This document shows positions 3,908-35,295 of a stretch of DNA of 64,000 nt, piece by piece. The position numbers were made by a program, and so were the translations under genes. Numbering within the stretch: the first letter of the stretch is position 1; the number at the start of each line of letters is the position of its first letter. The DNA comes from Escherichia coli. Lineage in GTDB: Bacteria > Pseudomonadota > Gammaproteobacteria > Enterobacterales > Enterobacteriaceae. The stretch is taken from assembly GCA_902500055.1 (NCBI GenBank), contig GCA_902500055.1_4131.1; one strand, 5' to 3'. Below the pieces are notes generated by a model. It was given only the letters and a program-made list of their open reading frames with translations. It did not search any database and was not told where the DNA came from.

Positions 3908-3970
3908 GAGGGAGAACCATTTCCCCCTCTCTATGTAAAACATTATACTTGATTCTAAGTACTATGCAAG
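3908..3970 (-). promoter_or_regulatory. promoter plus 5' stem-loop cassette (PeSL-like)
   Basis: Minus strand: -35 TTGCAT (3964-3969), 16 nt, -10 TATAAT (3942-3947), then hairpin GGGAGAACCATTTCCCC. Confidence 0.55.
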
Positions 3971-3976
3971 TACTTT

Positions 3977-4309
3977 TTACATTTTAATACCTGGATTCAG
4001 GTAGCGGTGAGATCCATATTCTGGATCGGTTTCGGTCCAGTACTGTAAATCGATAGTACCTTTCGCGTTAATCTTGTCTACCAGCTTATTCATCTTAGCG
4101 TATACTACATCAGCATCGATGCGTTTAAAGCCAGTGGCTTTAGTGAAGTAGTAGTGATTTGCTTCACTATCATTCAGGATGTACCGAGAACCGTTTGCCG
4201 TTTGTGCGATAATGATTGAGTATTCTACGTTACGGTCGAGGCCGTCGATGAATACAGAGGAAACATTAGTACGGATGAAAGCTTTAACGATAGCGATTGA
4301 AGTAGTCAT
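3977..4309 (-). CDS. hypothetical protein
   Basis: ORF track 110 aa; RBS AGGAG upstream. Confidence 0.6.
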   Translation of the reverse strand: MTTSIAIVKAFIRTNVSSVFIDGLDRNVEYSIIIAQTANGSRYILNDSEANHYYFTKATGFKRIDADVVYAKMNKLVDKINAKGTIDLQYWTETDPEYGSHRYLNPGIKM

Positions 4310-4511
4310 TTTGAATCTCCTAACTTTGTGGGCCGTCGCACCATTGCCGCCCTACGAGATACATTATTGCAGTACTGATATACTTTGTCAATACTTTTTT
4401 TATTAATAGTTTTCACTCCACCAGCAGATAGTTACTCACCGTTATTAACTATATATTTTGGATACACTTATGCACCCTGTGGGCTAGTTTTTGTCTATGC
4501 GTATATAATAG

Positions 4512-4555
4512 CAAAGGGACTGACCGGAGTCAATCCCTTTTTTTATTCTTTTTTG
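4512..4555 (-). terminator. UNCG-tetraloop intrinsic terminator (bidirectional)
   Basis: Hairpin GGGACTGACCGGAGTCAATCCC flanked by A-run and T-run. Confidence 0.5.
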
Positions 4556-4756
4556 TTAGATGATTCTCCAATCATCAACGATCATGGTAAGATACCGAAC
4601 CAGTGATTCGAGTGATTCGTGTTCTCGATAGTCTGCCGCACCGCCAGCGGTACAAGTACAGCCGATTAAGCCGTTTTGCAATTCCTTAATCTGTACATCG
4701 ATAAGGTTGGCTTTAGCTTCTTTCAGTACTTCAACCAGGGCGATAGCGATAGACAT
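4556..4756 (-). CDS. hypothetical protein
   Basis: ORF track 66 aa. Confidence 0.55.
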   Translation of the reverse strand: MSIAIALVEVLKEAKANLIDVQIKELQNGLIGCTCTAGGAADYREHESLESLVRYLTMIVDDWRII

Positions 4757-4778
4757 AATGTTTTACTCCAAACTATTG

Positions 4779-4842
4779 GCGGGAGAACTATTCCCCCGCT
4801 CTATGTAAAACATTATACATTACTGGTTAGTACTGTCAAATA
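4779..4842 (-). promoter_or_regulatory. promoter plus 5' stem-loop cassette (PeSL-like)
   Basis: -35 TTGACA (4835-4840), 17 nt, -10 TATAAT (4812-4817), hairpin GGGAGAACTATTCCCCC. Confidence 0.55.
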
Positions 4843-4846
4843 GTTT

Positions 4847-5104
4847 TTATGAAATATCTTCGATGTAGTCGGCCCATTTCATTTTTTCAGTACTGTCAAG
4901 TGCAATCGGATTGCTAGGATCAAACCATTCACCATTCCCGCAATACATCCCCACGGCGACGGTTTTATATCCATCCTGGGCCGCACTCCACGACATTGCA
5001 CGATAGATATGGCCTTTAACTGGTTGCAGTACTGGTAACGTTTTATGGTCTTCTACGTAGGCCATAGCTTGAGGATTTACCCGATATTGTGTGAATTGAT
5101 CCAT
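4847..5104 (-). CDS. hypothetical protein
   Basis: ORF track 85 aa. Confidence 0.55.
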   Translation of the reverse strand: MDQFTQYRVNPQAMAYVEDHKTLPVLQPVKGHIYRAMSWSAAQDGYKTVAVGMYCGNGEWFDPSNPIALDSTEKMKWADYIEDIS

Positions 5105-5180
5105 TATGTTTCCCCTTGTAGTTAGTAAAGTTATTACATCAGTACTATCAAGCTATGTCAATAGTACTGAAATAAAACTT

Positions 5181-5405
5181 TTAGATTAGATTATTGAGGC
5201 CGTTGATGGTAGACTCGCTTTCTTCTTTCTCCCATTGGCGGTAGTACTTCCATGCTTCATGATATGTGGCGATTAGTTCATCTTTTTGATCCTGGTTACA
5301 TGCCAGTACTGAATCACGGTGAGCGGTGTTATAGATAGAATCGAATGATTTCTTCTCTTCTGCCAGGTTAGCTACTTCCCGCATCAGTTCATCAAAGTTA
5401 GCCAT
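5181..5405 (-). CDS. hypothetical protein
   Basis: ORF track 74 aa. Confidence 0.55.
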   Translation of the reverse strand: MANFDELMREVANLAEEKKSFDSIYNTAHRDSVLACNQDQKDELIATYHEAWKYYRQWEKEESESTINGLNNLI

Positions 5406-5421
5406 TTTATTACTCCTTTTA

Positions 5422-5482
5422 GTGGGGGAGGATATCTCCCCCTATGCAAAACATTATACTTTGTTTTAGTTATTATGCAAGT
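5422..5482 (-). promoter_or_regulatory. promoter plus 5' stem-loop cassette (PeSL-like)
   Basis: -35 TTGCAT (5475-5480), 16 nt, -10 TATAAT (5453-5458), hairpin GGGGGAGGATATCTCCCCC. Confidence 0.55.
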
Positions 5483-5736
5483 ACTTTTTTCATATAAACA
5501 TTAAATTCTACACCGCCGTAACCTTCCACGATGATATGTTTTGCGTTATCACGCTTGCACATAGTGAAACCGTTGTTGATATGTTCTGCATTTTCCAGGG
5601 ATACATCACCGATTGCAGCACATACGGCACTAATAACAGTATTCCGCAAAGTACTGGTATCATTAGCGGTCATAGTAGTTTGCAGTACTACGTTGTCGTA
5701 TACGTGTGCATTGATAGTGATTTCGATAGTGTTCAT
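5473..5736 (-). CDS. hypothetical protein
   Basis: ORF track; start trimmed to Met19 (MNTIEITI) with GGAG RBS. Confidence 0.55.
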   Translation of the reverse strand: MNTIEITINAHVYDNVVLQTTMTANDTSTLRNTVISAVCAAIGDVSLENAEHINNGFTMCKRDNAKHIIVEGYGGVEFNVYMKKVLA

Positions 5737-5754
5737 GGTGTATCTCCTGGACTT

Positions 5755-5818
5755 GAGGGGAAACCATTTCCCCCTCTCGATATAAAACATTATACGTTAA
5801 TCTAACTACAATGCAAGT
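5755..5818 (-). promoter_or_regulatory. promoter plus 5' stem-loop cassette (PeSL-like)
   Basis: -35 TTGCAT (5811-5816), 16 nt, -10 TATAAT (5789-5794), hairpin GGGGAAACCATTTCCCC. Confidence 0.55.
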
Positions 5819-5823
5819 ACTTT

Positions 5824-6015
5824 TTAAATTTTATTTCCGATATAGTCCGGCATGTTCTTTTCAGTCATACGCTTTGCTAATGTCTGCATATGGCTTATAG
5901 CGTTCAAGGTGTCTTCCTCCAGGGATGAATCAAGATAATCAGGATCATTCTTCACCTTGCAATGATTATGATAGCGTAGTACAGCCAGTACTTTTTTAAC
6001 TTCTTCAACTGTCAT
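5824..6015 (-). CDS. hypothetical protein
   Basis: ORF track 63 aa. Confidence 0.5.
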   Translation of the reverse strand: MTVEEVKKVLAVLRYHNHCKVKNDPDYLDSSLEEDTLNAISHMQTLAKRMTEKNMPDYIGNKI

Positions 6016-6284
6016 AATAAGTACCCCACTTCGTTAGCTTTCAGGTTAGTATCAATCATCAGTGGATTTTTGTAGTTCACAAAACGATTAGTTTTCTCGA
6101 TAGCGAATCCCATATAATCCAGCTTGCTTACAGTACATTCATTCTTAAAAACTTCTTTCGCTGTATCGATGGCTGATTGCATGGATAACCGCCCATCTAA
6201 ATTAATGTTTCCAAATGATCCACCAGCAGAAGTAGGATTACCGTTCATATCTTTAATGATCATAGTAGCGGAGTAGCTGGACAT
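6012..6284 (-). CDS. hypothetical protein
   Basis: ORF track 90 aa; ATGA overlap with downstream gene. Confidence 0.55.
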   Translation of the reverse strand: MSSYSATMIIKDMNGNPTSAGGSFGNINLDGRLSMQSAIDTAKEVFKNECTVSKLDYMGFAIEKTNRFVNYKNPLMIDTNLKANEVGYLL

Positions 6285-6372
6285 AATTTTGTTTCCTTTT
6301 ATTGGTGGGGGAGAACTATTCTCCCCTTGATGTAAACTATTATACAGTACTGATATACTTTGTCAAATACTT

Positions 6373-6777
6373 TTATTCGCCCATATAGATTAAGTTATCA
6401 TCGCCTACATAGGGATCGCAAACGTTGATTTCTTCGCAGTACTTCGTGAATACATCGCCATAGTGACCTAAACCACGATCCCAAAAACCAGTTCCGTGAC
6501 CTTCGCGGGTAAGGAACAGATCATGACCAGCTTGCTCATAACCGTAATCAATAAACATACCGCGAACTACTTCCAGATCATTACCGTGTTTCTCAATGAA
6601 GCGAGAACATGCAATCACCGCCGCTTGACGTGCTTCATCAGATAACTCATAATCTTCCAGGTAATCGCCGTTATCATTATGTACAGTACTGAATTGCATA
6701 GCTTCAATGTAACCAGCGACCATTGCAGCATGATTTTTATCGTTGGCGATATTCCGAGCAAGATTAGTAGTAGTCAT
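6373..6777 (-). CDS. hypothetical protein
   Basis: ORF track 134 aa. Confidence 0.6.
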   Translation of the reverse strand: MTTTNLARNIANDKNHAAMVAGYIEAMQFSTVHNDNGDYLEDYELSDEARQAAVIACSRFIEKHGNDLEVVRGMFIDYGYEQAGHDLFLTREGHGTGFWDRGLGHYGDVFTKYCEEINVCDPYVGDDNLIYMGE

Positions 6778-6861
6778 GATTTTATTCCTTTTAGTATCGG
6801 GGAGAACTATTCTCCCCTTGATGTAAACTATTATACAGTACTAAGATACTTTGTCAAATAC

Positions 6862-7083
6862 TTAATTACGTTTAAAATGATATGTACCTTTATCATCCTG
6901 TACGCCCCATACTGATTTACCATCAACACCAGTGAAGCCGGATTGTAATTCAATATGGAAACCATTATTATCAACTACAAAAACTTTTTTATTTTCATCC
7001 CGATAACATTGATATTCTGAATCAACATTAAAGGCCGCATCATTCAGACGATTGGAAGCGTAAATGCAAGTCATTGTAGTCAT
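6862..7083 (-). CDS. hypothetical protein
   Basis: ORF track; start trimmed to Met12. Confidence 0.5.
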   Translation of the reverse strand: MTTMTCIYASNRLNDAAFNVDSEYQCYRDENKKVFVVDNNGFHIELQSGFTGVDGKSVWGVQDDKGTYHFKRN

Positions 7084-7264
7084 GATTTTATTCCTTAATA
7101 TACCAGGGAGAACCATTTCCCCCTCTCGATATAAAACATTATACTTGATTCTAAGTACAATGCAAGTACTTTTTAAAAAATAGTTTTCAGTACTGAATAC
7201 TTATATAATAGATACACTTCCGCACCCTATGGGTCAGTGAGTTATCTCTCAATGGATATATAAT

Positions 7265-7300
7265 AGCAAAGGGACTGACCGGAGTCAATCCCTTTTTTAA
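7265..7300 (-). terminator. UNCG-tetraloop intrinsic terminator (bidirectional)
   Basis: Hairpin GGGACTGACCGGAGTCAATCCC 7271-7292, T-run on plus side. Confidence 0.5.
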
Positions 7301-7306
7301 TCTTTT

Positions 7307-7891
7307 TTATCGTGTTACCTTACTTGCTGCCACATCACGCTTTTTATAGTACTGATTCCAGATATTGCAGGTTAAACCGTAATCAAGTACTTTAATAAGG
7401 CCATTACGATCCTGGCCGATATTCTGTTTTCTGATATCTCTTATCGTTAGTGTTGATAATGTATCATCGACGTGTTGTAGTGCATCAGCAAAGCGGTGCT
7501 GGCGTTCGATTGCATTACGTTTAATATTGTACTTTAATTCATTGCACGCGTTTACGTGCTTCACACTACCTTTGCTTGCAGTACTCAACCGATCCATAAC
7601 GATAAACATATTATCAGGATCGCATAAATGCATATGCACCTTTGCAAAGTACTGTTTCAACTGAGGGCGGTCATAGTCTAAAAAATTCCATACCTTACAT
7701 TCAGTTTCATTTTGTTCTACACCCGCATCACAATTCGCGACCTTAATCACTAACCGATCATTTAAAGCGAAAACTATACGGGAAGAACCAGCACCGATGA
7801 TCTCCAGGCCAGCTAACCGACAAGCTGAAAGGATCTCTTTGTTGGTTTCCATTTCTGACAGTGTACGGATGAATTTAGTATAATTACGCAT
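7307..7891 (-). CDS. eukaryotic-like Ser/Thr protein kinase
   Basis: Gly-rich loop IGAGSSRIVF, VIKV lysine, catalytic loop IRDIRKQNIG, DFG-like IKVLDYG; start trimmed to Met20 with AAGGAGAA RBS. Confidence 0.7.
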   Translation of the reverse strand: MRNYTKFIRTLSEMETNKEILSACRLAGLEIIGAGSSRIVFALNDRLVIKVANCDAGVEQNETECKVWNFLDYDRPQLKQYFAKVHMHLCDPDNMFIVMDRLSTASKGSVKHVNACNELKYNIKRNAIERQHRFADALQHVDDTLSTLTIRDIRKQNIGQDRNGLIKVLDYGLTCNIWNQYYKKRDVAASKVTR

Positions 7892-7922
7892 TGCATGTTC
7901 TCCTTGAGTTAATGAAACTATA

Positions 7923-8165
7923 TTACAGTACTTTACTATCAATGGCAACTACTTTTTTAACATTAACGGCGTGGATCACTTCCTTCGTGTTTTTAGTACT
8001 GAATACTTTCGCCGCTCCTTGTTCGACCGTGATACGATAGCGACCATTAACATCAACCATATTAATAAAGTCCGGCGTGCTGAATGGTGTTGTTTTACAT
8101 TTGAGTACTGTTAACAGTTCCACCAGCGATGTAGTTTCTTTGATACGTTTTTCTAAAGTAATCAT
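7923..8165 (-). CDS. hypothetical protein
   Basis: ORF track; start trimmed to Met20; upstream 57 nt is a repeated promoter (TTGACA-17-TACTAT). Confidence 0.5.
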   Translation of the reverse strand: MITLEKRIKETTSLVELLTVLKCKTTPFSTPDFINMVDVNGRYRITVEQGAAKVFSTKNTKEVIHAVNVKKVVAIDSKVL

Positions 8166-8222
8166 TTTGTTTCCCCCGTGTTGGTATGTACATATAGTAC
8201 TAAAACATTTGAGTACTGTCAA

Positions 8223-8441
8223 TTAGATAATATTATATTTCTTTAAAGATAATGCGTCTTGGGTTGGCTGATACTCGATACCGTTCCCATTATTGACTTC
8301 AACTAATAAACCTTTGTCAATTAGTTTTTTAATAGTACGATACCCCTGTTGAAAATTGGTAAAATGTGAATCATTACGAAAGGTATAACCGTGCTTAACT
8401 GCTTCATCAATAGTTTTCTTTTCGATTTTAGATAATTTCAT
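8223..8441 (-). CDS. hypothetical protein
   Basis: ORF track; start trimmed to Met20; same repeated upstream cassette as 7923-8165. Confidence 0.5.
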   Translation of the reverse strand: MKLSKIEKKTIDEAVKHGYTFRNDSHFTNFQQGYRTIKKLIDKGLLVEVNNGNGIEYQPTQDALSLKKYNII

Positions 8442-8494
8442 TTTGTTTCTCCCGTGTTGGTATGTGTACATAATACTAAAACAATTGAGTACTG

Positions 8495-8749
8495 TCAACG
8501 TGATATTAGTTTTATTTTCTTATTATATTGTTGGTGTTCATATAGGTTTATTTTTCCTGTGTTCTCTATTACTATTCTGTTGTTAGTGTCCACATCGATT
8601 ACACGCAGTTTCCCGTTGCTTAACTTCCTTGGTAATAGGTTACCATTAATAAACTCATTAGCAAGCTGTACGGCCTTTGTGATGATTCTCTTCGGTGCTT
8701 TATAGTGTACCCGTAAGATGTTATCTTTATATAGTTGAACCTTAATCAT
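8495..8749 (-). CDS. hypothetical protein
   Basis: ORF track 84 aa. Confidence 0.5.
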   Translation of the reverse strand: MIKVQLYKDNILRVHYKAPKRIITKAVQLANEFINGNLLPRKLSNGKLRVIDVDTNNRIVIENTGKINLYEHQQYNKKIKLISR

Positions 8750-23925: not shown

Positions 23926-24117
23926 TTACTTTCTATATATAAGCATTAAGATATAGTAGTACTGATTATACTGTACATTCTCTTTAATATTATAAGGGTC
24001 TATAGCAATCTCGGTACATCTGTTAAATGCATATCTATTAAATGCCAGTGGAATTATAGATCTAATCCATACTTGTTCATTTTCTTTTAGTTTACTTATA
24101 TAGAAGTTTTTATACAT
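23926..24117 (-). CDS. family B small hypervariable protein
   Basis: ORF track 63 aa; termini MYKNFYISKL...ILMLIYRK. Confidence 0.6.
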   Translation of the reverse strand: MYKNFYISKLKENEQVWIRSIIPLAFNRYAFNRCTEIAIDPYNIKENVQYNQYYYILMLIYRK

Positions 24118-24132
24118 AGTATTCTCTATTAA

Positions 24133-24315
24133 TTAATATGATAGTACTAGTGTTAGTACTGAGCACAATTGTTCTTTATAGTTCTTATGGTATATAGAAT
24201 CTTTTATGCACTCATTGAAGTGCCATAGGTATAATCTTGGGTCGCATTCTTTATATATTCTTACGGGGACGAATGTTAGTTTTCGTATATAGAATTCTTT
24301 ATGTTCTTTATTCAT
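24133..24315 (-). CDS. family B small hypervariable protein
   Basis: ORF track; MNKEHKEFYIRKL...LTLVLSY. Confidence 0.6.
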   Translation of the reverse strand: MNKEHKEFYIRKLTFVPVRIYKECDPRLYLWHFNECIKDSIYHKNYKEQLCSVLTLVLSY

Positions 24316-24316
24316 A

Positions 24317-24505
24317 TTAGTACCTGAATATAAGTAGGATTATGTTATAGTACTGGTTAGTACTGCAATGATTCTCTATACATCGATTAACAGTTATGGA
24401 ATAGCTATATCTGGCGTAAGCATTATCCAGCGGGATTTTACATTGAGCACTTAGAGAAAGTACAGTAGGTAGTGTATTCAAATAGAAGTCTTTGTAATTA
24501 TTCAT
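24317..24505 (-). CDS. family B small hypervariable protein
   Basis: ORF track; MNNYKDFYLNTLP...ILLIFRY. Confidence 0.6.
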   Translation of the reverse strand: MNNYKDFYLNTLPTVLSLSAQCKIPLDNAYARYSYSITVNRCIENHCSTNQYYNIILLIFRY

Positions 24506-24707
24506 ACAGGAATAGTATACCTATGATACCTGAGTACAGGTTAGTACTGTTACCATCTTCGTTTGCGTTTAAAGTCATTTGAATACAATTATTGTAGCAT
24601 ACTCTGCCGAAAAATGTATTAGTACTTAAAGGTGGAGTAGTCCTTAGAAACATTTGTTCTGAGGGGCTGAGGTGTTTGGAGTAGTATTCTTTATGTTCTT
24701 TATTCAT
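24498..24707 (-). CDS. family B small hypervariable protein
   Basis: ORF track; MNKEHKEYYSKHL...ILFLYE. Confidence 0.6.
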   Translation of the reverse strand: MNKEHKEYYSKHLSPSEQMFLRTTPPLSTNTFFGRVCYNNCIQMTLNANEDGNSTNLYSGIIGILFLYE

Positions 24708-24712
24708 ATTAG

Positions 24713-24898
24713 TTAGTGTCTGTATATAAGTAATAGTAAGAATACGTACTGCACTTGTTCATCTTTAGTATTGAGTACTGTACGTATTGCGTCATTAAAC
24801 AAGAATATAGTACTTGGGTCATGAGAATTTAAAGGGGTTCTGGGTACGGCATGTTTGTAGTTCCCTTTAACAAATTGTGTGTAGTATTCTCTATGCAT
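24713..24898 (-). CDS. family B small hypervariable protein
   Basis: ORF track; MHREYYTQF...LLLLIYRH. Confidence 0.6.
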   Translation of the reverse strand: MHREYYTQFVKGNYKHAVPRTPLNSHDPSTIFLFNDAIRTVLNTKDEQVQYVFLLLLIYRH

Positions 24899-24899
24899 A

Positions 24900-25085
24900 T
24901 TAGTACCTATATATTAGGGCGATAATGTAGTACAATTCATATGGAATGTAATTTGGGGTGATCGCACACTGTGTATGGTAAATGAATTGTTCGGTATTTT
25001 TCTTATCCTTGATATCTATTGGGATTAGTGGTATAAGCATTTGGGAGTTTAGATCGAGATGGCTTAAGTAGAATTCTTTATGCAT
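24900..25085 (-). CDS. family B small hypervariable protein
   Basis: ORF track; MHKEFYLSHL...IIALIYRY. Confidence 0.6.
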   Translation of the reverse strand: MHKEFYLSHLDLNSQMLIPLIPIDIKDKKNTEQFIYHTQCAITPNYIPYELYYIIALIYRY

Positions 25086-25094
25086 ATTGTTCTT

Positions 25095-25283
25095 TTAGAA
25101 TACGAAAGCTAGGTACAGGGTATGATACAGTACTCGATGATAGCTATCAAAATCTAGTATACATGCTTTAGTGCACATAGTAAAGTACACTTTATCGTTT
25201 TGTGCAATGATACCGCGAGGTTTATCTAATAGATTAGTACTGAGGTACATTGGGAAATATTTTGTGTAGTATTCTTTATGCAT
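25095..25283 (-). CDS. family B small hypervariable protein
   Basis: ORF track; start trimmed to Met16 (MHKEYYTKYF). Confidence 0.6.
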   Translation of the reverse strand: MHKEYYTKYFPMYLSTNLLDKPRGIIAQNDKVYFTMCTKACILDFDSYHRVLYHTLYLAFVF

Positions 25284-25284
25284 A

Positions 25285-25467
25285 TTAGTACCTGAATATA
25301 AGTAGGATAGTGTTATATAGCTGGTCATAACTACTACTATTTTCTATACTTCGTTCTATGCAGTTATTGAATCCCAGTACTGCCAAATCGTTATCCATAG
25401 GGACTTTGTATCTGGCGTAGTGTTCAAAAATGCTGGGGAGAAATTGTGTGTAGTATTCTTTGTGCAT
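25285..25467 (-). CDS. family B small hypervariable protein
   Basis: ORF track; MHKEYYTQFLP...ILLIFRY. Confidence 0.6.
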   Translation of the reverse strand: MHKEYYTQFLPSIFEHYARYKVPMDNDLAVLGFNNCIERSIENSSSYDQLYNTILLIFRY

Positions 25468-25468
25468 A

Positions 25469-25660
25469 TTAGTACCTATATATTAGTAAAAGGATGTGAT
25501 ACAGTACTCGATTATAGTCTTCAATATATATCGAGGATTTAGTGCACTTAATGAAATAGTCTTTTTCGTAGTCTTTTTCTATACTCAATTGTTTTGTTGG
25601 TACAAGGTGTTGGAGATACATTGGGAGTTTCTCTATGTAGTATTCTTTGTGGTTATTCAT
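25469..25660 (-). CDS. family B small hypervariable protein
   Basis: ORF track; MNNHKEYYIEKLP...LLLIYRY. Confidence 0.6.
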   Translation of the reverse strand: MNNHKEYYIEKLPMYLQHLVPTKQLSIEKDYEKDYFIKCTKSSIYIEDYNRVLYHILLLIYRY

Positions 25661-25668
25661 ATTATGTG

Positions 25669-25848
25669 TTATTTCGTGAAAACAAGGGTTAGTACTGCAT
25701 AGTACAAGTCATACGTATCTTTAGGGTTAATAGCACCTTTAATACATTCTTTCATTACTTCATTATAGATAATTTTAGTACTGAATGTATTGGATGTTAC
25801 TATATCGGAATTAAGGTACGAGAGGTAGAATTCTTTATAAGTATTCAT
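25669..25848 (-). CDS. family B small hypervariable protein (59 aa, below ORF-track cutoff)
   Basis: Manual translation MNTYKEFYLSYL...YYAVLTLVFTK. Confidence 0.5.
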   Translation of the reverse strand: MNTYKEFYLSYLNSDIVTSNTFSTKIIYNEVMKECIKGAINPKDTYDLYYAVLTLVFTK

Positions 25849-25849
25849 A

Positions 25850-26032
25850 TTAGTACCTGAATGTTAGCATTACTACGTAGTACAGCATATATGGATTATC
25901 ATCGTATATGAGCGTGTACTTAGTACATTGTTGGAACATTATCTTTGCGTGATCTTTGATACCCAATGCAACGTTTGGTATATGGTGTTGTAGATGCATT
26001 GGGATTTTATCTTTGTAGTATTCTTTATACAT
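25850..26032 (-). CDS. family B small hypervariable protein
   Basis: ORF track; start trimmed to Met22 (MYKEYYKDKIP). Confidence 0.6.
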   Translation of the reverse strand: MYKEYYKDKIPMHLQHHIPNVALGIKDHAKIMFQQCTKYTLIYDDNPYMLYYVVMLTFRY

Positions 26033-26684
26033 AGTTTGAAATATACGTAATGAGGTGATGAAATTTCTTATCAGTACTGATAAGTTCCTGTACATGTTTT
26101 GTTAGTTTGTACGCGTTTTTATAGAGTTCTGGATTATCGATTACAGTACTGTACATGAATTCTTCTTCTGGTGTTAATTCTTTGTTTTGTAGTTCTTTGA
26201 GGAATTGCAGTACTGTATCAGTTTCGTTAGTACGTTGCTTTTGGAAGAAGTGCATGTTATCGTGTATTTTTTCTGAACCCATGCAGTACATATCGCCGAT
26301 TTGGAATTGTGCAGTACTGATATCATGGGTGCTATTACAATTCCCGAAGAAGTATACATTCCCGAAAGATAGAATTATAGTGCACGGGATATTATCCATG
26401 TGTATATAGATAGATGCATTCTTTAGTGCTTTTGTGCTGGTATTAGTACTCAATACTTTTAAATCAGTATGATAGATATTAATAAAAGCAAGAGCTATAT
26501 TATTTTTCTTCAAGTACGATTTGAGGTTCTTAGATACGAGAACATTTCTGGATTTTTTCTTTTTATTTCGTTTCTTTAGTACATTAGGGTGATACGTATA
26601 TGCAGATGTAATAGATTCTGCTTGAATACTGTTGAGGTACTTAAAGTGCTTAAGGTATTGTTTGCTGTGTGCATTAAGTTTCAT
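26025..26684 (-). CDS. hypothetical protein (219 aa) embedded in family B array
   Basis: ORF track; long ORF in AT-rich DNA; no family B motifs. Confidence 0.55.
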   Translation of the reverse strand: MKLNAHSKQYLKHFKYLNSIQAESITSAYTYHPNVLKKRNKKKKSRNVLVSKNLKSYLKKNNIALAFINIYHTDLKVLSTNTSTKALKNASIYIHMDNIPCTIILSFGNVYFFGNCNSTHDISTAQFQIGDMYCMGSEKIHDNMHFFQKQRTNETDTVLQFLKELQNKELTPEEEFMYSTVIDNPELYKNAYKLTKHVQELISTDKKFHHLITYISNYV

Positions 26685-26694
26685 TTGGTTTCCT

Positions 26695-26874
26695 TTATAC
26701 AGATGCTAGTGCGAGGATTTCCCTGAAGGGATTATCTTTTGTTAGTGCGTGATGAATGCAGCTATTGAGATTAATATTTTTAGTACTGTTAGTTGCCAGG
26801 TTGTAGTACTTCACGAAGGTGTCGTACATGAAACGGTCTTTAATGCTTATGTGTTCTATATAGTATTCTTGCAT
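26695..26874 (-). CDS. family B-like small protein
   Basis: ORF track; start trimmed to Met26 (MQEYYIEHIS). Confidence 0.5.
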   Translation of the reverse strand: MQEYYIEHISIKDRFMYDTFVKYYNLATNSTKNINLNSCIHHALTKDNPFREILALASV

Positions 26875-26882
26875 ATTATTCC

Positions 26883-27062
26883 TTACATAGAGATGAGTTT
26901 CAGTACTTCTCTGTACGTGTACTTTTCGTTTTGTGCTTCTACTGTACATGATAGAAAGTATCGTTTTTTATCTCTTTTGTTCCCGACTGTGTAGTACCTT
27001 TGGAATTTATTATAGTTGTATCTATCTTTGTGCTGAAGTTTATAGATATAGAATTCTTGCAT
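26883..27062 (-). CDS. family B-like small protein (59 aa, below ORF-track cutoff)
   Basis: Manual translation MQEFYIYKLQHKDRY...EVLKLISM. Confidence 0.5.
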   Translation of the reverse strand: MQEFYIYKLQHKDRYNYNKFQRYYTVGNKRDKKRYFLSCTVEAQNEKYTYREVLKLISM

Positions 27063-27070
27063 AGAGTACC

Positions 27071-27256
27071 TTAGATAGAGATTAGTTTCAGTACTTCAAT
27101 ATATGTGCGGTACTCTGCTTTAATTAAATTTGTACACACTGTAAGGGAATTTCTTTGTATAAGTTTATTGCCGCTTTTATACGCATTTCTCCACACATAG
27201 AGATGAGATCTTTCTGGCATAGATAGTTTATTTGTATAGTACTCAAATGTATTCAT
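27071..27256 (-). CDS. family B-like small protein
   Basis: ORF track; start trimmed to Met8 (MNTFEYYTNKL). Confidence 0.55.
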   Translation of the reverse strand: MNTFEYYTNKLSMPERSHLYVWRNAYKSGNKLIQRNSLTVCTNLIKAEYRTYIEVLKLISI

Positions 27257-27266
27257 AGTATTCTCT

Positions 27267-27452
27267 TTACATATCAATAAGTTTCAGTACTGCTCTGTAC
27301 GTGTACTTAGTTGTTAGTGTTTCTTTTATAGCAGTACTGAAGTAATGTTGTTTGTCCCTTATACTACCGCGTTTGTAGTACCATACATGGGAGTTGTGGG
27401 TGTACTTGTCCCTGTCGGATAGATTTTGGTAATAGTATAATATATGATTCAT
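27267..27452 (-). CDS. family B-like small protein
   Basis: ORF track; MNHILYYYQNL...AVLKLIDM. Confidence 0.55.
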   Translation of the reverse strand: MNHILYYYQNLSDRDKYTHNSHVWYYKRGSIRDKQHYFSTAIKETLTTKYTYRAVLKLIDM

Positions 27453-27661
27453 GGTAATGTAATTAGCCTTATTATGTTAAAGTACTCGGTTCCTGGTACA
27501 CCTTGTAGAATATTATCAACTACATTTTCTTGGTGCAGGATTAATACATTCGGTGCGGTTCTTTTAAGGTTTTTTAAAGTACTGTATTCTTGTTTAAGGA
27601 TGAACTGTACATCTTTAGGGAGAATATCTAAGTAGTACTGGTGTATGTTCATAGTTTTCAT
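27449..27661 (-). CDS. family B-like small protein
   Basis: ORF track; MKTMNIHQYYLDILP... Confidence 0.55.
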   Translation of the reverse strand: MKTMNIHQYYLDILPKDVQFILKQEYSTLKNLKRTAPNVLILHQENVVDNILQGVPGTEYFNIIRLITLP

Positions 27662-27672
27662 ATAGTACTCTT

Positions 27673-27858
27673 TTAGAACTTAAAGATGAGGTTCATGATA
27701 GATAAGTACTTAGTTTCAGGAAATTGATGTTCTATTGCATAACGTGTCTCCAGTCTGAAGTCAAATTTATAAAAGGGACTATTCATATCCATAGGTTCAT
27801 TGGGAAATGAATCTCTGTATTGTTTGTGCAGCTTACTACAGTAGAATTCTTTATACAT
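27673..27858 (-). CDS. family B-like small protein
   Basis: ORF track; MYKEFYCSKL...IMNLIFKF. Confidence 0.55.
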   Translation of the reverse strand: MYKEFYCSKLHKQYRDSFPNEPMDMNSPFYKFDFRLETRYAIEHQFPETKYLSIMNLIFKF

Positions 27859-27859
27859 A

Positions 27860-28072
27860 TTAGTGCTCGATTAAAAGGGTTAGGATGTAATAGTATTGCA
27901 TACTTTCTACCCCTTGTACAGCATTTCTTATTTTATTATTCCTGTACGAGTTCAAGAGTTTAGGACAATGTTTGAAGTTTATATAATTATTTTGTGTATA
28001 CAGTAGGCTTTCTCGTAGACCTTTTGTTGGTAGTGCATCGATGTAGTACTGTTCAATGTTCATAGTGTTCAT
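27860..28072 (-). CDS. family B-like small protein
   Basis: ORF track; MNTMNIEQYYIDALP... Confidence 0.55.
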   Translation of the reverse strand: MNTMNIEQYYIDALPTKGLRESLLYTQNNYINFKHCPKLLNSYRNNKIRNAVQGVESMQYYYILTLLIEH

Positions 28073-28296
28073 AGAGCTACCAGTACTAAGATTTTTGATA
28101 ATTGTTTATTGCTATCCCCGCAGATGGTGCTGTGTAAAATACTCACTACAAGGGTATCAAGTGCATTGTTCAGCATAAGGTTACATCCAGTACTGTTATG
28201 TGTTTTTAGCTCTATTAGCCACGAACAATCCGCGAGAAACTTACCGTACTCTAGTTCATTTAGAGTATTAATGTAGTACTTAAGTGTAGCTGTCAT
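28069..28296 (-). CDS. family B-like small protein (first gene of minus array)
   Basis: ORF track; start trimmed to Met19 (MTATLKYYINTL). Confidence 0.5.
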   Translation of the reverse strand: MTATLKYYINTLNELEYGKFLADCSWLIELKTHNSTGCNLMLNNALDTLVVSILHSTICGDSNKQLSKILVLVAL

Positions 28297-28398
28297 GTGT
28301 AGTTCTCCTTGTATTCCTTCTATAGTACACCAGTACTGAAAGGATGTCAAGGGTTTTGTTTATGGGGTAAATATGATATAATGAATAAAGGAGGAAAT

Positions 28399-29304
28399 AT
28401 GTTACCTTTTGTTAGAATGTTTGATTATGGGAATGAAGCTCCATTACCAGCCCCAAATGGTGGTATACGAACTCAATTTACCACATCACCAGTACCTTCA
28501 GCACGAAATAACTTTGGTTATACGTATGATGCATCAAGAAATACTGCTTATATATTTGGTGGTATAATGAATACTTCGAACCAGGATAATCAGTTATGGA
28601 GTTTTAATTTAAATTCTAGAATATGGGTACAATTATCATCACCACCAGTATCCACCTATGGAAGTGCATTGTGTGCCTATCAAGGAAAAATATATTTGTT
28701 CGGTGGTTTAGGTGCAGCGAATGTTGCTAATAATAATTTTTATGTATATGACATAAGCTCTGATACATGGACACTGAATAATACAAGTGTTGGCAAACCT
28801 AACCAGGCAGTATATAGTAAGATGATTACTACAGGGGATAAGATATATTTGTGGGGTTCACCGTCTAATACTGCATTATATAGTTATACGCCGAGTACTA
28901 ATACATGGGCATCGTTAGGTACTACTGGGAATACAACAAACAATGGTGGTGGTGATATGTGCACTGATGGTACTTACATATATTTTACAGGACAAGGATC
29001 TACTCCTGCACAAAAATATCACATAGAGAGTGCGGTTTGGTCAAGAATGGCAGCAGTTGGTGGAGCTAACCCTAGTAAGATAATTTACAATAGATATGAC
29101 AAAGGTATATATGCAGTATCTTATGGTGCATTAAATTTATTAAAATATGATGCCGAGCAAAACAAATGGATACCATTAGCTATCAATACAACGTTGAGTA
29201 ATAGTACTGGTGCATTATTTGGCTCTAATAATAGTGCTGAAATATTTTACGTACTTGGTTACGACAACGGGACACGTGTTAATACGCAGTATGTTTTTAA
29301 ATAA
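28399..29304 (+). CDS. family C member 1: conserved N-terminal peptide + Kelch-like beta-propeller
   Basis: AGGAGGAAAT-ATG; N-terminus MLPFVRMFDYGNEAP; six blades with IY.FGG/W pattern. Confidence 0.8.
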   Translation: MLPFVRMFDYGNEAPLPAPNGGIRTQFTTSPVPSARNNFGYTYDASRNTAYIFGGIMNTSNQDNQLWSFNLNSRIWVQLSSPPVSTYGSALCAYQGKIYLFGGLGAANVANNNFYVYDISSDTWTLNNTSVGKPNQAVYSKMITTGDKIYLWGSPSNTALYSYTPSTNTWASLGTTGNTTNNGGGDMCTDGTYIYFTGQGSTPAQKYHIESAVWSRMAAVGGANPSKIIYNRYDKGIYAVSYGALNLLKYDAEQNKWIPLAINTTLSNSTGALFGSNNSAEIFYVLGYDNGTRVNTQYVFK

Positions 29305-29316
29305 TTTGGAGGAAAT

Positions 29317-30466
29317 ATGTTACCTTTTGTAAGAATGTTTGATTATGGGAATGAAGCACCTACCAACTCTGGGCGTTTTAAAATATATTCCAGTGATTCT
29401 ATGTATCTTCATGATACTTATACTGATAAGTTGTATGCATCTTCTGCGACGAATTGGGGTACTGGTACAGGTGTAGCATCGAGTAAATTTATTCTTTGTG
29501 CGGAGAATGTTAAACGAGTTCTATTGGAAGATAACAGTAGTGATTGTCAATTGTATGAAGAGAAAGGTACTGGAAAAGTTTTTATCACTGGTAACACGAA
29601 GGCATTCACTGGTGTAACTGATAGAAAAACTTTGTGGACGGACTGTACTACGTGGATAACATCAAGTGGTATTAATGTTTCTGATATAAAATACATGAGT
29701 AGTTTTTATGATATGAAGGTGAATTTGATAACAAACGATGGTACATTGTATTGTTGTGGAACTAACAATATATCGAACATATCATCATTTGGTGATGGCA
29801 CAAACATTAATTCTTTTAACACATTCAAAAGAGTAGATACTATAACTTCGGTTAAAAAGGCAGTTGGTAACATTTATTTGCGAGAAGATAATACTTTATG
29901 GGGTTGTGGTTTTAACTATTACTACCAGTTGGGTACTGGTAATCAAACTTCGATTACTGGGGTGACGATGATTTCTTCGGATGTTATAGATTTTGATGTA
30001 AGTTATCAGAGTACATTTTTTTATCAAATCGGATAATAATTTGTACGCATGTGGGAAGCAGTACGGAGCACAATATGGTAATGAATTTGGCACAGGTGGA
30101 ACATCTACTAGTACTGATATTCAATACAAGACTCCTACATTATTGAGTACAGGGGTATATGGTGTATATGCATGTGTTGCTAACATGGCATCACATATTG
30201 TCAAAGCAGATGAAGTTCTATATGCTTCTGGATCGAATGGGTTTGGGCAATTAGGTGTTGGTAATAATAATAATCAGTACTCCTATACTCCTTCATATAC
30301 TTCGTTTAATACTTCGTGTAATTTGGTACGCACTCCATCTGGTTCACTTATACTTACTGACACTTCGAAGTTATATTATTCGGGTGCTTCATTTGTAGTA
30401 ATGGGTGGTAGTGCTGGACAGAACGTTCTTAATTATACCGAAGTCGATATGTCATTTGTGCAGTAA
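29317..30466 (+). pseudogene. family C member 2, interrupted by frameshift at T7 tract (pseudogene, phase-variable or sequencing error)
   Basis: ORF 29317-30036 (MLPFVRMFDYGNEAP...) continues in +1 frame as 30041-30466 with RCC1-like repeats; T7 run at 30016-30022; a T6 run would fuse them into about 383 aa. Confidence 0.6.
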
Positions 30467-30475
30467 ATTAATATA

Positions 30476-30502
30476 CCAGTACTTGATACTGGCTTTTTTT
30501 GA
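30476..30502 (+). terminator. family C cassette terminator hairpin
   Basis: CCAGTACTTGATACTGG followed by T7. Confidence 0.6.
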
Positions 30503-30534
30503 TTAAATATAGTATAATGAATAAAGGAGGAAAT

Positions 30535-31644
30535 ATGTTACCTTTTGTAAGAATGGTTAAGTACGGGAATATTGCACCAGTACCGAAAAAAATAAAGAAA
30601 GTTATAGCAGGATATGATAATTTATATGTACTATATGGTGATGGTTCGCTATATGGTTGTGGAATCAATAACTATCAACAGTTAAATATTGATGGAACTG
30701 CTACACAAAATAATTGGGTACTAATTACCAATGGTGTTAGTAATGCATGGGCTGGTGGATACAATATTTTATATTTGAAAGAAGATAAATTTATAATGCA
30801 CGGAACTAATGTCTCATTAGGTTTAGGAAATACTACAATTCCATTAGGTGGAGTAGATGTAACTTCTTCATTCCCAGATATCTCTAATATTAAAATGATA
30901 TCCATTGGTTTTGATTCAATGCACTATGTTAGTGCTGATGGTACAACTGTATATGGAAGAGGTATGAACACAAATGGTTCTGTTGGTTCAGGTAGTACTT
31001 ACTCACAGAGTACTTTCACTTCAGTACTGAATAATGGAACTAATCAGGTTATTGATATATTTGGTAACGTTAATAATACAGTGCTTCTAACATCGAATGG
31101 TGAGCTTCGAGCATGTGGGACAAGTGCTTATGGTTCTATAGGAAATGAAACTGGTAAGTGGACATCGTTTGGTTTAAAATTATCTGGCACTAAAATAATG
31201 GGTGGTAATGGGTATAGTACGCTTGCATATACAAATTCGGGAATGTACCACTCAGGGTGGCAGTTAAATGGGGAACTAGGAAATGGTTTAGATACTAACG
31301 TACAGGTATATCCATTTCAATTTAACTCTAAAACGATAGATAGCAAGATAGATAAAATTGCCAAATCATCATCTGGGTCATATGTTAACATGTACTCAAC
31401 AACAGAAGGAAAGATATATACGACAGGTTCGTTTGGTAAAAACGGGTCAACTACTGCATTGAATTTGTTCACCAATACATTAACACTTATAAATTACAAT
31501 CCAGATACCGCCTCGTTGTATACGTGCACAAACTTCAGTGTTGTGTATGATGGTAATGAAACTATTGCTGTAAGTGGTAGTCCTACATATGTACCAGGGG
31601 GCGTTGCCGCTAATAGATGGACTACAATTCCATTACCCAAGTAA
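30535..31644 (+). CDS. family C member 3: N-terminal peptide + RCC1-like beta-propeller
   Basis: TATAAT, AGGAGG, MLPFVRMVKYGN; repeats LYGCGINNYQQL, VYGRGMNTNGSVG. Confidence 0.8.
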   Translation: MLPFVRMVKYGNIAPVPKKIKKVIAGYDNLYVLYGDGSLYGCGINNYQQLNIDGTATQNNWVLITNGVSNAWAGGYNILYLKEDKFIMHGTNVSLGLGNTTIPLGGVDVTSSFPDISNIKMISIGFDSMHYVSADGTTVYGRGMNTNGSVGSGSTYSQSTFTSVLNNGTNQVIDIFGNVNNTVLLTSNGELRACGTSAYGSIGNETGKWTSFGLKLSGTKIMGGNGYSTLAYTNSGMYHSGWQLNGELGNGLDTNVQVYPFQFNSKTIDSKIDKIAKSSSGSYVNMYSTTEGKIYTTGSFGKNGSTTALNLFTNTLTLINYNPDTASLYTCTNFSVVYDGNETIAVSGSPTYVPGGVAANRWTTIPLPK

Positions 31645-31650
31645 TACTAT

Positions 31651-31678
31651 GCCAGTACTTGATACTGGCTTTTTTTGA
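31651..31678 (+). terminator. family C cassette terminator hairpin
   Basis: GCCAGTACTTGATACTGGC followed by T-run. Confidence 0.6.
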
Positions 31679-31711
31679 TTAAATATAGTATAATGAATAA
31701 AGGAGGGAATT

Positions 31712-32839
31712 ATGTTACCTTTTGTTAGAATGTTTGATTATGGGAATATAATCGAAGTTAATAATATAAAGAAAAGTGTTGTTAGTTACACTCTTGAAAT
31801 GTTTCTAATGCAAGATGGCACTGTATATGCACACGGTGAAGATTCAAACTATAATGCGGGTTTAAGTACAAAGTTTGTATCGTTAGGAGCAGTTCAACAA
31901 ATCACAACTGAAGTTGATGACTTATGGTTAGGATCGTTTTCCGTTGTTATTAAAGGTGATAAAATATATGGTTCAGGTTCAACATATGCATTCACGAATT
32001 CTAATACTTTCCAACAAGGATATACTGACTGGGCTGTGTATTTCACTGGTATAGATGTTACCCAAATTAAAAAAATGTTATGTGGTTATACAGCATTTAC
32101 ATTAATGAAAGACGGAACACTTTATGGAAGAGGATGGAATCGAAGTGGTTCATTAGGTTTAGGACATAAAAATTATGTTTCAGCGTGGACTGTACTTGAC
32201 ACTAATGTGGATAATATATTTGGCGGTTACCTTGGCGATACATTGTTTAAGATTAAAAACGATGGAACTGTATATGGTTCAGGTTCAAATAACAGCTTTC
32301 AAGTTAAAGCAACATCGGGTGATGCAACCACATTTGTTCCGTTGTTTGATGATATATCTTATGATATAAAATGCAGTTTTGTTTCTGGTGTTGGTTTTGT
32401 AATGATAACATCTGATAATAAAATATATGCAACTGGAACTACTTTTGCTGGTAGTGGTGCACATAGTAAAGTTTTTGATGTTGGTTTTACTATAGGTGAT
32501 ATGAGTAATATATATCATCCTGATTCGTTGGACTATTCGACTAGTGTTGTATTTTTAATTAATGCAGATACAAACAAACTAATAGCAACTGGGCATACCC
32601 CATTTACGGGAAGTAGTTCAAGTTCCCTTCCATATTTTACAGCATTTCAAGAATTCAATTTTACATCGTTCAATTCGAATACACGATATAGTGGGTCTTT
32701 ATACTGGAATACATTTTACGAAGGTAATAATGTATGGATGAATGGATATAATCCTAAAAATACGGGTGGAAAGAATTTCTCATTGTGTTCAATACCGTTA
32801 GATACTATTATTACTAAGCAAATTGATTTACCTTTTTGA
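31712..32839 (+). CDS. family C member 4: N-terminal peptide + RCC1-like beta-propeller
   Basis: MLPFVRMFDYGN; repeats LYGRGWNRSGSLGLG. Confidence 0.8.
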   Translation: MLPFVRMFDYGNIIEVNNIKKSVVSYTLEMFLMQDGTVYAHGEDSNYNAGLSTKFVSLGAVQQITTEVDDLWLGSFSVVIKGDKIYGSGSTYAFTNSNTFQQGYTDWAVYFTGIDVTQIKKMLCGYTAFTLMKDGTLYGRGWNRSGSLGLGHKNYVSAWTVLDTNVDNIFGGYLGDTLFKIKNDGTVYGSGSNNSFQVKATSGDATTFVPLFDDISYDIKCSFVSGVGFVMITSDNKIYATGTTFAGSGAHSKVFDVGFTIGDMSNIYHPDSLDYSTSVVFLINADTNKLIATGHTPFTGSSSSSLPYFTAFQEFNFTSFNSNTRYSGSLYWNTFYEGNNVWMNGYNPKNTGGKNFSLCSIPLDTIITKQIDLPF

Positions 32840-32846
32840 ATACTAT

Positions 32847-32877
32847 GCCAGTACTCAAGTACTGGCTTTTATTTTTG
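32847..32877 (+). terminator. family C cassette terminator hairpin
   Basis: GCCAGTACTCAAGTACTGGC followed by T-run. Confidence 0.6.
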
Positions 32878-32911
32878 ATTAAATATAGTATAATGAATAA
32901 AGGAGGGAAAT

Positions 32912-34105
32912 ATGTTACCTTTTGCTAGAATGGTTAAATACGGGAATAAACTGCCTATTCCTGATCCAGTTGAGTTCACTGATGTTTTACAGCAACATTA
33001 TACTAATGCTATGTATCTACATAAGCCCACGAATACACTATACGGTTATGGTGGTAATAACTTGAGCCAATTAGGTCTAGGGAATCGATCGGCAGTTTCT
33101 ACTTTTACAGTACTGGCAACGCACTGTGCAGCCTTTTGGTTAGGCGTTCATGGATCATTGATGATTGACTTGGATAATAGAATATATTTCACAGGGAATA
33201 CAGTAGCATTCCCCGATTATGGAGATGCAACTCCAGTTAATGGTTATTTTAGAACATGGACTGATGTTACTGCCGCATTTAACAAAATAAATGTACACGC
33301 TAATTTAATCAAGAGTGTACATATAGGTGAAAGTACTAGAATATTACTACACGATGGAAGAGTCGTTGTTTGTGGTAAAAATGCAAATGCCGAATGTGGA
33401 ACAGGTAACCAAAATCCCATTCCAGTACTAACAGTTGTTACTGGTATGGGTGAAGTTTCTCAATTGGCGTGTTCATTACAGGGTACGCACTATCTCAAAA
33501 CAAATAAAGAAGCATGGTTTTGTGGTAAGGATAACTTTGGTGAAAGTGGTGGTGGGACTAGCTCATACGTTTTTACTAATAAATTAATACGAACCAACGT
33601 CGATTATATAAGTACTACTTATGATGTTACCTGGTGGTTTACTGCCGGTAGGGTGTACTGGAGTGGTAGAAACAATTCTGGACAAGCTGGGAATGGTACT
33701 ACTTCAACTACAAACCAATTAACTACAGTTCAGAATTCACAGGTTATAGTGAATATTAGTGATGGTTTCCTGTGTCCTAGTAATATGGGTAACTCAACAA
33801 TTGGTGCACCTATGGCTCAATACCCATCATATGTCAGGAGTGCAGGCATCAATACATATGGTCAAGAAGGGACGGGAAATACAACAATAATTACTTCGTG
33901 GGGGGCGTTTTCTTTAAGTGCGATACAGGGTGGATATGACAATGTTCTTATGGCATCCAAAGACTGGTCCAGAACAATAATTATAACTAAAGATTATAAA
34001 TTATATGCATGTGGGGGCTTTAACGGTTCAGGTAGTAAATTACCGGATGGTACTTACTTAATTAAAACATTAACATTAATGCCAACGCAGTTATGGCAAT
34101 CATAG
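32912..34105 (+). CDS. family C member 5: N-terminal peptide + RCC1-like beta-propeller
   Basis: MLPFARMVKYGN; repeats LYGYGGNNLSQLGLGN, VYWSGRNNSGQAGNG. Confidence 0.8.
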   Translation: MLPFARMVKYGNKLPIPDPVEFTDVLQQHYTNAMYLHKPTNTLYGYGGNNLSQLGLGNRSAVSTFTVLATHCAAFWLGVHGSLMIDLDNRIYFTGNTVAFPDYGDATPVNGYFRTWTDVTAAFNKINVHANLIKSVHIGESTRILLHDGRVVVCGKNANAECGTGNQNPIPVLTVVTGMGEVSQLACSLQGTHYLKTNKEAWFCGKDNFGESGGGTSSYVFTNKLIRTNVDYISTTYDVTWWFTAGRVYWSGRNNSGQAGNGTTSTTNQLTTVQNSQVIVNISDGFLCPSNMGNSTIGAPMAQYPSYVRSAGINTYGQEGTGNTTIITSWGAFSLSAIQGGYDNVLMASKDWSRTIIITKDYKLYACGGFNGSGSKLPDGTYLIKTLTLMPTQLWQS

Positions 34106-34114
34106 GAGAAAATC

Positions 34115-35224
34115 ATGTTACCTTTTGTTAGAATGTTTGATTATGGGAATATCACACCTGGTCCTAAAAATATAATTAAAGTTGGTGCTTCTACACAGGG
34201 TCAATTCTTATTGACAGATTCACATGATTTATATTACATAGGTAGAAATCAAGGTGGTGAATCTGGAAATGGAAATACCAACACAGTATCCTCATGGATA
34301 TTAGTAAGTACAGATGTTTCTAATTTTTTCGTGGGTGATCGTACACTTGTTATTATTAAAAATGATAATACGATATGGTCATCAGGTCAAACGTACTGGT
34401 TCACATCTTCCACAACTACTTCTTACAGTACTGTATTAGTTGATAGAACCAGTTGGTTCACAAATGCAATACCAGTAAGTGAAATTGCTAATATTGTATG
34501 TACATATGGTTTAATATTTGTACTTAGCACTAATTCAGTACTCTATGGTGCAGGGGCTAATGGATATCGTGGTGCTTTAGGTATTGGTTCATCATCAATT
34601 TACACATTAACTCAATGTGCTACTAATGTGCGTAAAGTAATGACGAATTCAAATGACAGTATGTATATTACATTAGATAATAAGTTATATAGTTCTGGGT
34701 GGAATGACAGGGGTCAGCATGGCACGGGGAACCGAACACAAATTAACACGTGGGGATTACGTAGTACTGGAGTAATAGATGCAGCTATTGGTGGACATAC
34801 ACTCAATTACTATAATGGTACATCATATTTCACATGTGGTACAACTCCAAACTTTCTTAGTTCAGATTCAACTACATTCAAAGCAGTTCCTGTAAGTACT
34901 TTACCTAATAATTCACCTTTGTTTATGACAAATTCAGAGGCAACAAGCACGGCTACGCAAATTATATTAACTAGTGCATATCAGAAAGGTATTGGGGGAA
35001 ACCGTGGTTTGGGATTAAACAATTCTCAAACGGGTGCTATCTATAGTGCTGCTAATTTACAATTACCTGTAGAAGTTAGTGAGATTAGTGATGTTGCTTT
35101 TAGTGACGGATTAACATCATTATTAACCAAAGACGGGAATGTATATAGTACTGGATCGTATTACGCCATTCCAGGTGCAAGTGCAGATGTTGCAGTCTTT
35201 ACTAAAATTGATTTACCAAAATAA
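34115..35224 (+). CDS. family C member 6: N-terminal peptide + RCC1-like beta-propeller
   Basis: MLPFVRMFDYGN; follows member 5 with no terminator (co-transcribed); repeats LYSSGWNDRGQHGTGN. Confidence 0.8.
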   Translation: MLPFVRMFDYGNITPGPKNIIKVGASTQGQFLLTDSHDLYYIGRNQGGESGNGNTNTVSSWILVSTDVSNFFVGDRTLVIIKNDNTIWSSGQTYWFTSSTTTSYSTVLVDRTSWFTNAIPVSEIANIVCTYGLIFVLSTNSVLYGAGANGYRGALGIGSSSIYTLTQCATNVRKVMTNSNDSMYITLDNKLYSSGWNDRGQHGTGNRTQINTWGLRSTGVIDAAIGGHTLNYYNGTSYFTCGTTPNFLSSDSTTFKAVPVSTLPNNSPLFMTNSEATSTATQIILTSAYQKGIGGNRGLGLNNSQTGAIYSAANLQLPVEVSEISDVAFSDGLTSLLTKDGNVYSTGSYYAIPGASADVAVFTKIDLPK

Positions 35225-35230
35225 CATAAT

Positions 35231-35260
35231 GCCAGTACTCAAGTACTGGCATTTCTTTTT
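35231..35260 (+). terminator. family C cassette terminator hairpin
   Basis: GCCAGTACTCAAGTACTGGC followed by T-rich run. Confidence 0.6.
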
Positions 35261-35295
35261 GGGGTAAATATAGTATAATGAATAAAGGAGGAATT

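Follow-up and report, generated by a model that had tools for sequence, protein, structure and literature searches.

The second of twelve tandem propeller genes in an Asteriusvirus jumbo phage was found to be divided at a homopolymer that contains one T more than in any relative read, and the lesion is probably an ordinary and very recent slippage mutation, in phage DNA that would itself carry the seven T residues. The sequence analyzed, referred to below as the window, is a stretch of 64,000 nucleotides from a contig deposited within an Escherichia coli draft assembly, and positions are counted from its first letter. The features of the interrupted gene and of its immediate surroundings are collected in Table 1.

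Table 1. Features of the interrupted gene, its surroundings and its closest intact alleles (positions in the window, unless given as nucleotides of the gene)
Feature	Position	Strand	Description
Upstream MLPF-tagged Kelch-propeller gene	28399–29304	+	301 aa; Kelch Pfam families above cut-off
5′ part of the interrupted RCC1-like gene	29317–30036	+	239-aa ORF; accession nos. VVZ33380.1 / WP_210765901.1
T7 homopolymer, frameshift site	30016–30022	+	One T above the T6 (Phe-Phe, TTT TTT) of every relative read
3′ part, +1 frame	30023–30466	+	147 codons and TAA (30464–30466); part of blade 5, blades 6–7 and closing strand
Premature TAA, shifted frame	30034–30036	+	Read from the sequence
Annotated 141-aa protein (accession no. 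VVZ33402.1)	from TTG at 30041	+	Annotation of the 3′ part
Terminator-like hairpin (CCAGTA-cttga-TACTGG), then T run	30476–30500	+	Closes the two-gene unit 28399–30466
First part of the mosaic	gene nt 1–614		Closest intact allele BF17, vB_Ec-M-J; 99.7–99.8% identical
Second part of the mosaic	gene nt 551–900		Closest intact allele L018 (metagenome, accession no. OERD01000139.1); one substitution and the extra T
Third part of the mosaic (last 281 nt)	gene nt 870–1150		Closest intact allele BF17; 100% identical

The run of seven T residues is bordered by A on either side. The ORF in which it lies has an ATG start codon at 29317, begins with MLPFVRMFDYGN and encodes a 239-aa product with the C-terminus ...SYQSTFFYQIG, the final four residues of which (YQIG) result from out-of-frame read-through into the premature TAA. 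The +1 frame (...IKSDNNLYACGKQYGAQYGNEFG...) stays open until the second TAA. Deletion of one T produces a single ORF of 382 codons plus a stop codon, with the junction peptide ...SYQSTFFIKSDNNLYACGK in the intact frame, as against ...STFFYQIG in the T7 frame. The tract, the premature stop and the open +1 frame had been described in an earlier note made from the sequence alone, and all three were confirmed. The same note had proposed that a T6 run would restore one protein of 383 aa, typical of the family; a single protein of typical size is indeed restored, but it comprises 382 aa, the number 383 having included the stop codon.

A stretch of 149 stop-free codons in the +1 frame has a chance probability of about 3e-5 at the base composition of the window, and its product shows 88–96% identity to the C-terminal third of intact orthologues (residues 1–235 are 98–99% identical to the same proteins). 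On these grounds, the downstream continuation is genuine coding sequence. Independent translation of the 141-aa ORF annotated in the 3′ part is unlikely: no Shine-Dalgarno sequence precedes its TTG start codon, and approximately 47 codons separate this start from the first in-frame ATG.

The repaired 382-aa protein scored above the cut-offs of two RCC1 repeat families of the Pfam database, PF00415 (34.5 bits; cut-off 21.7) and PF13540 (33.3 bits; cut-off 22), in agreement with the RCC1-like character that the earlier note had ascribed to the +1 continuation; with PF25390 it reached 69 bits, under the cut-off of 150. A match to phrog_4219 was also obtained (E = 1.4e-112). The fold was examined on an intact, 92%-identical orthologue (P0002) and not on the window's own split sequence. 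The AF2 model of this orthologue (pLDDT 91.2, pTM 0.88) consists of a disordered tag (residues 1–17) followed by one propeller (residues 21–375), and Foldseek aligned it over the full length (approximately 390 columns) with UVR8, the HERC2 RLD (RLD2), RPGR and RCC1, with TM scores of 0.70–0.74 and with only 13–19% identity to these eukaryotic RCC1 proteins. The intact protein is predicted to be a single seven-bladed RCC1-like propeller. Since the break occurs after residue 235, within a strand (232–237) counted as part of the fifth blade of the model, the 239-aa product would be without blades 6 and 7 and the closing strand, and, judging by this predicted fold, it is almost certainly non-functional.

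Mass spectrometry of purified phAPEC6 virions detected the orthologue of this phage, gp549, by 4 unique peptides (PMC7247149), and therefore the intact gene is expressed. The label “DNA condensation” attached to members of this family is an annotation transfer only, from eukaryotic RCC1, and the function it alludes to is guanine-nucleotide exchange or binding to chromatin; according to the authors of the phAPEC6 study, such proteins have no known function in prokaryotic systems (PMC7247149).

The window (36% GC) shows 90–98% nucleotide identity, in a mosaic pattern, to the Asteriusvirus jumbo coliphages (121Q, PBECO4, phAPEC6, BF17 and others), and no record identical to it was found in the phage collection. 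Judged by this similarity, the window belongs to an Asteriusvirus (a 121Q/PBECO4-like jumbo coliphage) present within an E. coli draft assembly. By exact-sequence look-up, the two gene halves were located on one contig of 353,697 bp that is deposited under “Escherichia coli”. This contig is a lytic phage genome sequenced alongside the bacterial isolate; 189 Asteriusvirus-like contigs have been documented in bacterial assemblies, and lytic phages of this kind are common in those of E. coli (PMC12768965). No matches to the gene were found in complete E. coli RefSeq genomes, nor did the tract pattern match any of the GTDB representative genomes. The databases list the phage proteins, among them those from both halves of the broken gene, under E. 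coli, since the 353.7-kb contig of the phage forms part of a bacterial draft assembly.

Twelve genes lie in tandem at 28399–42243 on the + strand, and the interrupted gene is the second among them. All twelve start with MLPF[VAGP]R[ML]xxY[GA]N. The array is composed of one Kelch propeller, ten RCC1-like proteins (369–401 aa) and one 245-aa member to which no family was assigned. The interrupted gene starts 12 nt past the stop codon of the Kelch gene, with neither a terminator-like site nor a promoter cassette between them, and the arrangement suggests that the two genes are probably co-transcribed. The terminator-like hairpin downstream of the pair is part of a cassette (30476–30534) that recurs in the spacers preceding positions 31712, 32912, 35296, 36537, 37800, 38609, 39797 and 41038, and is made up of the hairpin CCAGTACT...AGTACTGGC with a T run, followed by TTGATTAAATATAGTATAATGAATAAAGGAGG. 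Since its TTGATT and TATAAT motifs are separated by only 8 nt, the cassette is not a standard sigma-70 promoter, and it may represent a phage-specific one. The genes at 29317 and 34115, which adjoin the preceding gene, are without the cassette.

The N-terminal tag is shared across the twelve genes, though the bodies of the proteins represent different propeller folds, and several members of the tagged family are present in phAPEC6 virions; the tag may be a common peptide for virion incorporation or docking. The DNA encoding it is identical over 30 nt at 28405–28434, 31718–31747 and 34121–34150, and these repeats could plausibly act as crossover points for shuffling of the array. Head-to-head with the propeller genes lies a second large family of paralogues (23926–28350, − strand), comprising about 18 small tandem ORFs (59–93 aa) with the pattern M..KE[FY]Y...C...Y..[IL]L.LI[FY]R[YH], whose products are hypothetical in the annotation of all the relatives.

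In 12 of 12 phage genomes the orthologue of the interrupted gene is annotated as a 1149-nt CDS. Alignment of 13 sequences revealed that the extra T is the sole indel, the 12 relatives all reading ACA-TTTTTT-AT. A run of six T was also read in phAPEC6, Salmonella phage SD-1_S14 and four metagenome contigs, one from JGI and three, with an identical neighboring Kelch protein, from ENA. This length was read in all 18 distinct relatives, with no other length among them, and T7 was seen only in the window and in a Logan contig described below. A tblastn search with the repaired protein identified an uninterrupted orthologue in 27 of 28 phage records, and the representatives of the homologue clusters in a collection of 5.8 billion proteins are all 380–388 aa long. 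The ancestral tract is of six T.

The exception among the 28 records is SD-1_S14 (accession no. OR699183.1; position 1501–2638), in which an unrelated 11-bp deletion (gene nt 411–421) is accompanied by the annotation of three fragments. The adjacent RCC1-like gene of this phage also appears truncated, and the breaks could reflect either true decay or poor assembly. The record of BAU.Micro_ELP-22 (accession no. OR699282.2) contains, at positions 2646–8631, several short, adjacent or overlapping CDSs annotated as “regulator of chromosome condensation” (e.g. 7479–7703 with 7735–8631, and 5046–5855 with 5906–6076 and 6097–6225), which suggests that split family members occur there as well; when checked for a family-wide tendency to frameshifting, these genes were uninformative with the loci in hand. 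About 8 of the approximately 36 Asteriusvirus records are without an orthologue (28 contain one), and the gene is thus accessory. This distribution, together with the mosaic structure of the gene, makes the “fast-turnover family” of the earlier note a reasonable description.

Slipped-strand phase variation, one of three explanations among which the earlier note made no choice, is not supported by these comparisons. As a contingency locus, the tract would switch a virion-associated propeller ON (T6) or OFF (T7) by slipped-strand mispairing and so diversify the phage population. The lesion does fall exactly on a homopolymer, within a tandem, mosaic and variable array, some members of which are virion-associated in phAPEC6, and phage phase variation is known in such variable genes, for example in the polyG tracts of receptor-binding genes in Campylobacter phages. 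However, neither the 18 distinct relatives nor the 27 uninterrupted records display any length polymorphism, so that no ON/OFF recurrence of the tract is observed among relatives, and the only other broken orthologue has the deletion mentioned above. Moreover, the ancestral run, at six T, is much shorter than tracts with switch-like rates, and such runs are common: the 64-kb window contains 47 T6, 21 T7, 6 A7, 2 T8 and 2 A8 tracts, among which the T7 run by itself is unremarkable and not unusually long. The tract does not interrupt the Logan contig, which suggests that the assembly graph retained no abundant second allele. As in phase-variable tracts (bacterial contingency loci and the Campylobacter phage polyG tracts), the homopolymer lies inside a gene whose family is variable and possibly exposed on the virion surface, and its length sets the frame ON or OFF; in comparison with those tracts, the one in the window is short (6–7 bases), composed of T rather than G or C, and invariant across relatives. 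We consider a contingency locus to be very improbable.

A second assembly bears on the reality of the seventh T. The Logan contig of run ERR3555814, produced from the raw reads by separate k=31 de Bruijn assembly, is 2101 bp long and 100% identical to window positions 28405–30505, T7 included, and it ends on true 30-nt repeats encoding the MLPF tag. Because T7 is reproduced by this assembly, an artefact of one assembler or polisher is unlikely, although the Logan and deposited contigs, which probably share one read set, are independent assemblies rather than independent data. The clean k=31 graph suggests accurate (short) reads and no abundant second allele in ERR3555814. A literature search returned no publication that refers to this run. 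A base-by-base census of indels proved too noisy (intergenic indels, compensating gaps) and frame breaks were therefore counted at the protein level: across the part of the window that relatives cover (~47.6 kb), no other true CDS has a broken frame. The coding ORFs contain 64 homopolymers of at least 6 bases, and the other 63 (among them 18 runs of 7 and one of 8) break no frame, a result that speaks against a platform with a tendency to such errors at homopolymers.

If the extra T had arisen as an error in the reads or in their consensus, the phage would truly carry T6 and an intact 382-aa gene. Homopolymers are classic sites of indel errors, all the relatives read have T6, and an allele without any other private change is just what an artefact would look like. 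Nevertheless, the second assembler also returned T7, within a contig whose only breaks are at true repeats, and the frames at the remaining 63 coding homopolymers are intact. Short accurate reads seldom give a wrong majority consensus at a 7-mer. Such an error is rather unlikely, but it deserves serious consideration. Two options of the earlier note survive: a recent inactivating mutation, favored by the presence of T7 in a second assembly and by the lack of any other broken coding homopolymer, and, less favored, a homopolymer sequencing error.

The gene is a mosaic of three parts, each with its own closest intact allele (Table 1). The pattern indicates recombination inside a single propeller domain; the region of gene nt 551–900, almost identical to the metagenomic allele, shows only ~87% identity to cultured phages. 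Apart from the extra T, the gene has no private lesion and has accumulated no decay, and for this reason the frameshift is either very young or not real. One disabling change in comparison with intact orthologues, in a sequence otherwise free of decay, is the picture of a recent frameshift pseudogene. A dN/dS analysis of substitutions seemingly unique to the window, which had hinted at purifying selection past the break, was superseded, as these changes were inherited from an L018-like allele.

The interrupted arrangement was also considered as a case of purposeful decoding, in which transcriptional slippage on U7, or +1 ribosomal frameshifting on UUU-UUU-U, would provide a useful full-length protein beside the short form. 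Slippage by E. coli RNA polymerase is detectable from seven T residues on: in a reporter study, approximately 5% rescue was obtained by insertion on T7/T8 and 10% by deletion on T8 (PMC6260861). On UUU U, tRNA-Phe can in addition re-pair in the +1 frame, and a real T7 gene would thus probably show some leaky repair. However, the out-of-frame arrangement is conserved in no homologue, being unique to one genome, and the run of 7 is shorter than the 9 A or T residues typical of runs selected for slippage (PMC1088944). Inspection of the tract context revealed no upstream Shine-Dalgarno-like stimulator, the A-site codon (UAU, the next in line) is neither slow nor a stop, and the 100 nt downstream (30023–30122) fold no better than shuffled sequences (z = +0.38). 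A −1 ribosomal frameshift was rejected, because it leads to the wrong frame and the phasing ACA UUU UUU UAU forms no X XXY YYZ heptamer.

The resemblance to genes rescued by slippage (Citrobacter rodentium tssM, endosymbiont poly(A) genes and the A9 runs of IS elements) consists in a frameshift within an A/T run that is miscopied by RNA polymerase. In those cases, the run is usually of at least 9 bases and the disrupted arrangement is conserved, whereas the run in the window has 7 bases, at the detection threshold for the E. coli enzyme, and is found in one genome only. Purposeful decoding is thus highly unlikely, and any full-length protein made from a real T7 gene would plausibly be small in amount and incidental, not programmed. 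There is also very little likelihood of T7 being a genuine allele, heritable and easily reversed, that acts as a crude dosage or ON/OFF switch by allowing a few percent of full-length protein; if true, this would be the first A/T-tract phase variation in a jumbo coliphage, affecting a virion-associated propeller of a phage in the carrier state.

Taken as a whole, the lesion is best explained as an accident and not as a regulatory device, and this is the reading we hold to be likely. A T6 ancestor would have gained one T by replication slippage (a Streisinger-type +1 insertion, as we infer from the tract) very recently and in one phage lineage, that of an Asteriusvirus persisting in, and sequenced with, the E. 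coli isolate. The 382-aa seven-bladed propeller would thereby be split at residue 235, leaving the 239-aa fragment as the main product. Loss of the gene would be tolerated because it is one of 12 tandem propeller genes and is absent from some relatives, and colony purification of the culture would impose a population bottleneck in which fixation is possible. RNA polymerase slippage on T7 would contribute an incidental correction of at most a few percent of transcripts.

Like other Streisinger-type homopolymer frameshifts and young pseudogenes, the interrupted gene has a one-base insertion in a mononucleotide run as its single lesion relative to intact orthologues, a stop 4 codons downstream and a perfectly kept downstream frame, and there is no difference in kind, provided that the lesion is in the DNA rather than in the reads alone. 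The repaired protein is 92–98% identical to members of the “DNA condensation” family (phAPEC6 gp549 and its paralogues, 121Q gp248), with which it shares the location at the head of a tandem array, the MLPF N-terminus and the seven-bladed propeller; the window copy differs in being split.

Comparison with close relatives has settled most of what the earlier note expected read-level data to decide. For the databases, the finding means that VVZ33380.1/WP_210765901.1 and VVZ33402.1 are halves of one phage gene, whose annotation should read frameshifted pseudogene. The biological significance of the lesion is small, as it disables a single accessory paralogue of twelve in one phage lineage; should T7 be real, a virion-associated RCC1-like protein would be dispensable for persistence of the phage in E. 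coli culture.
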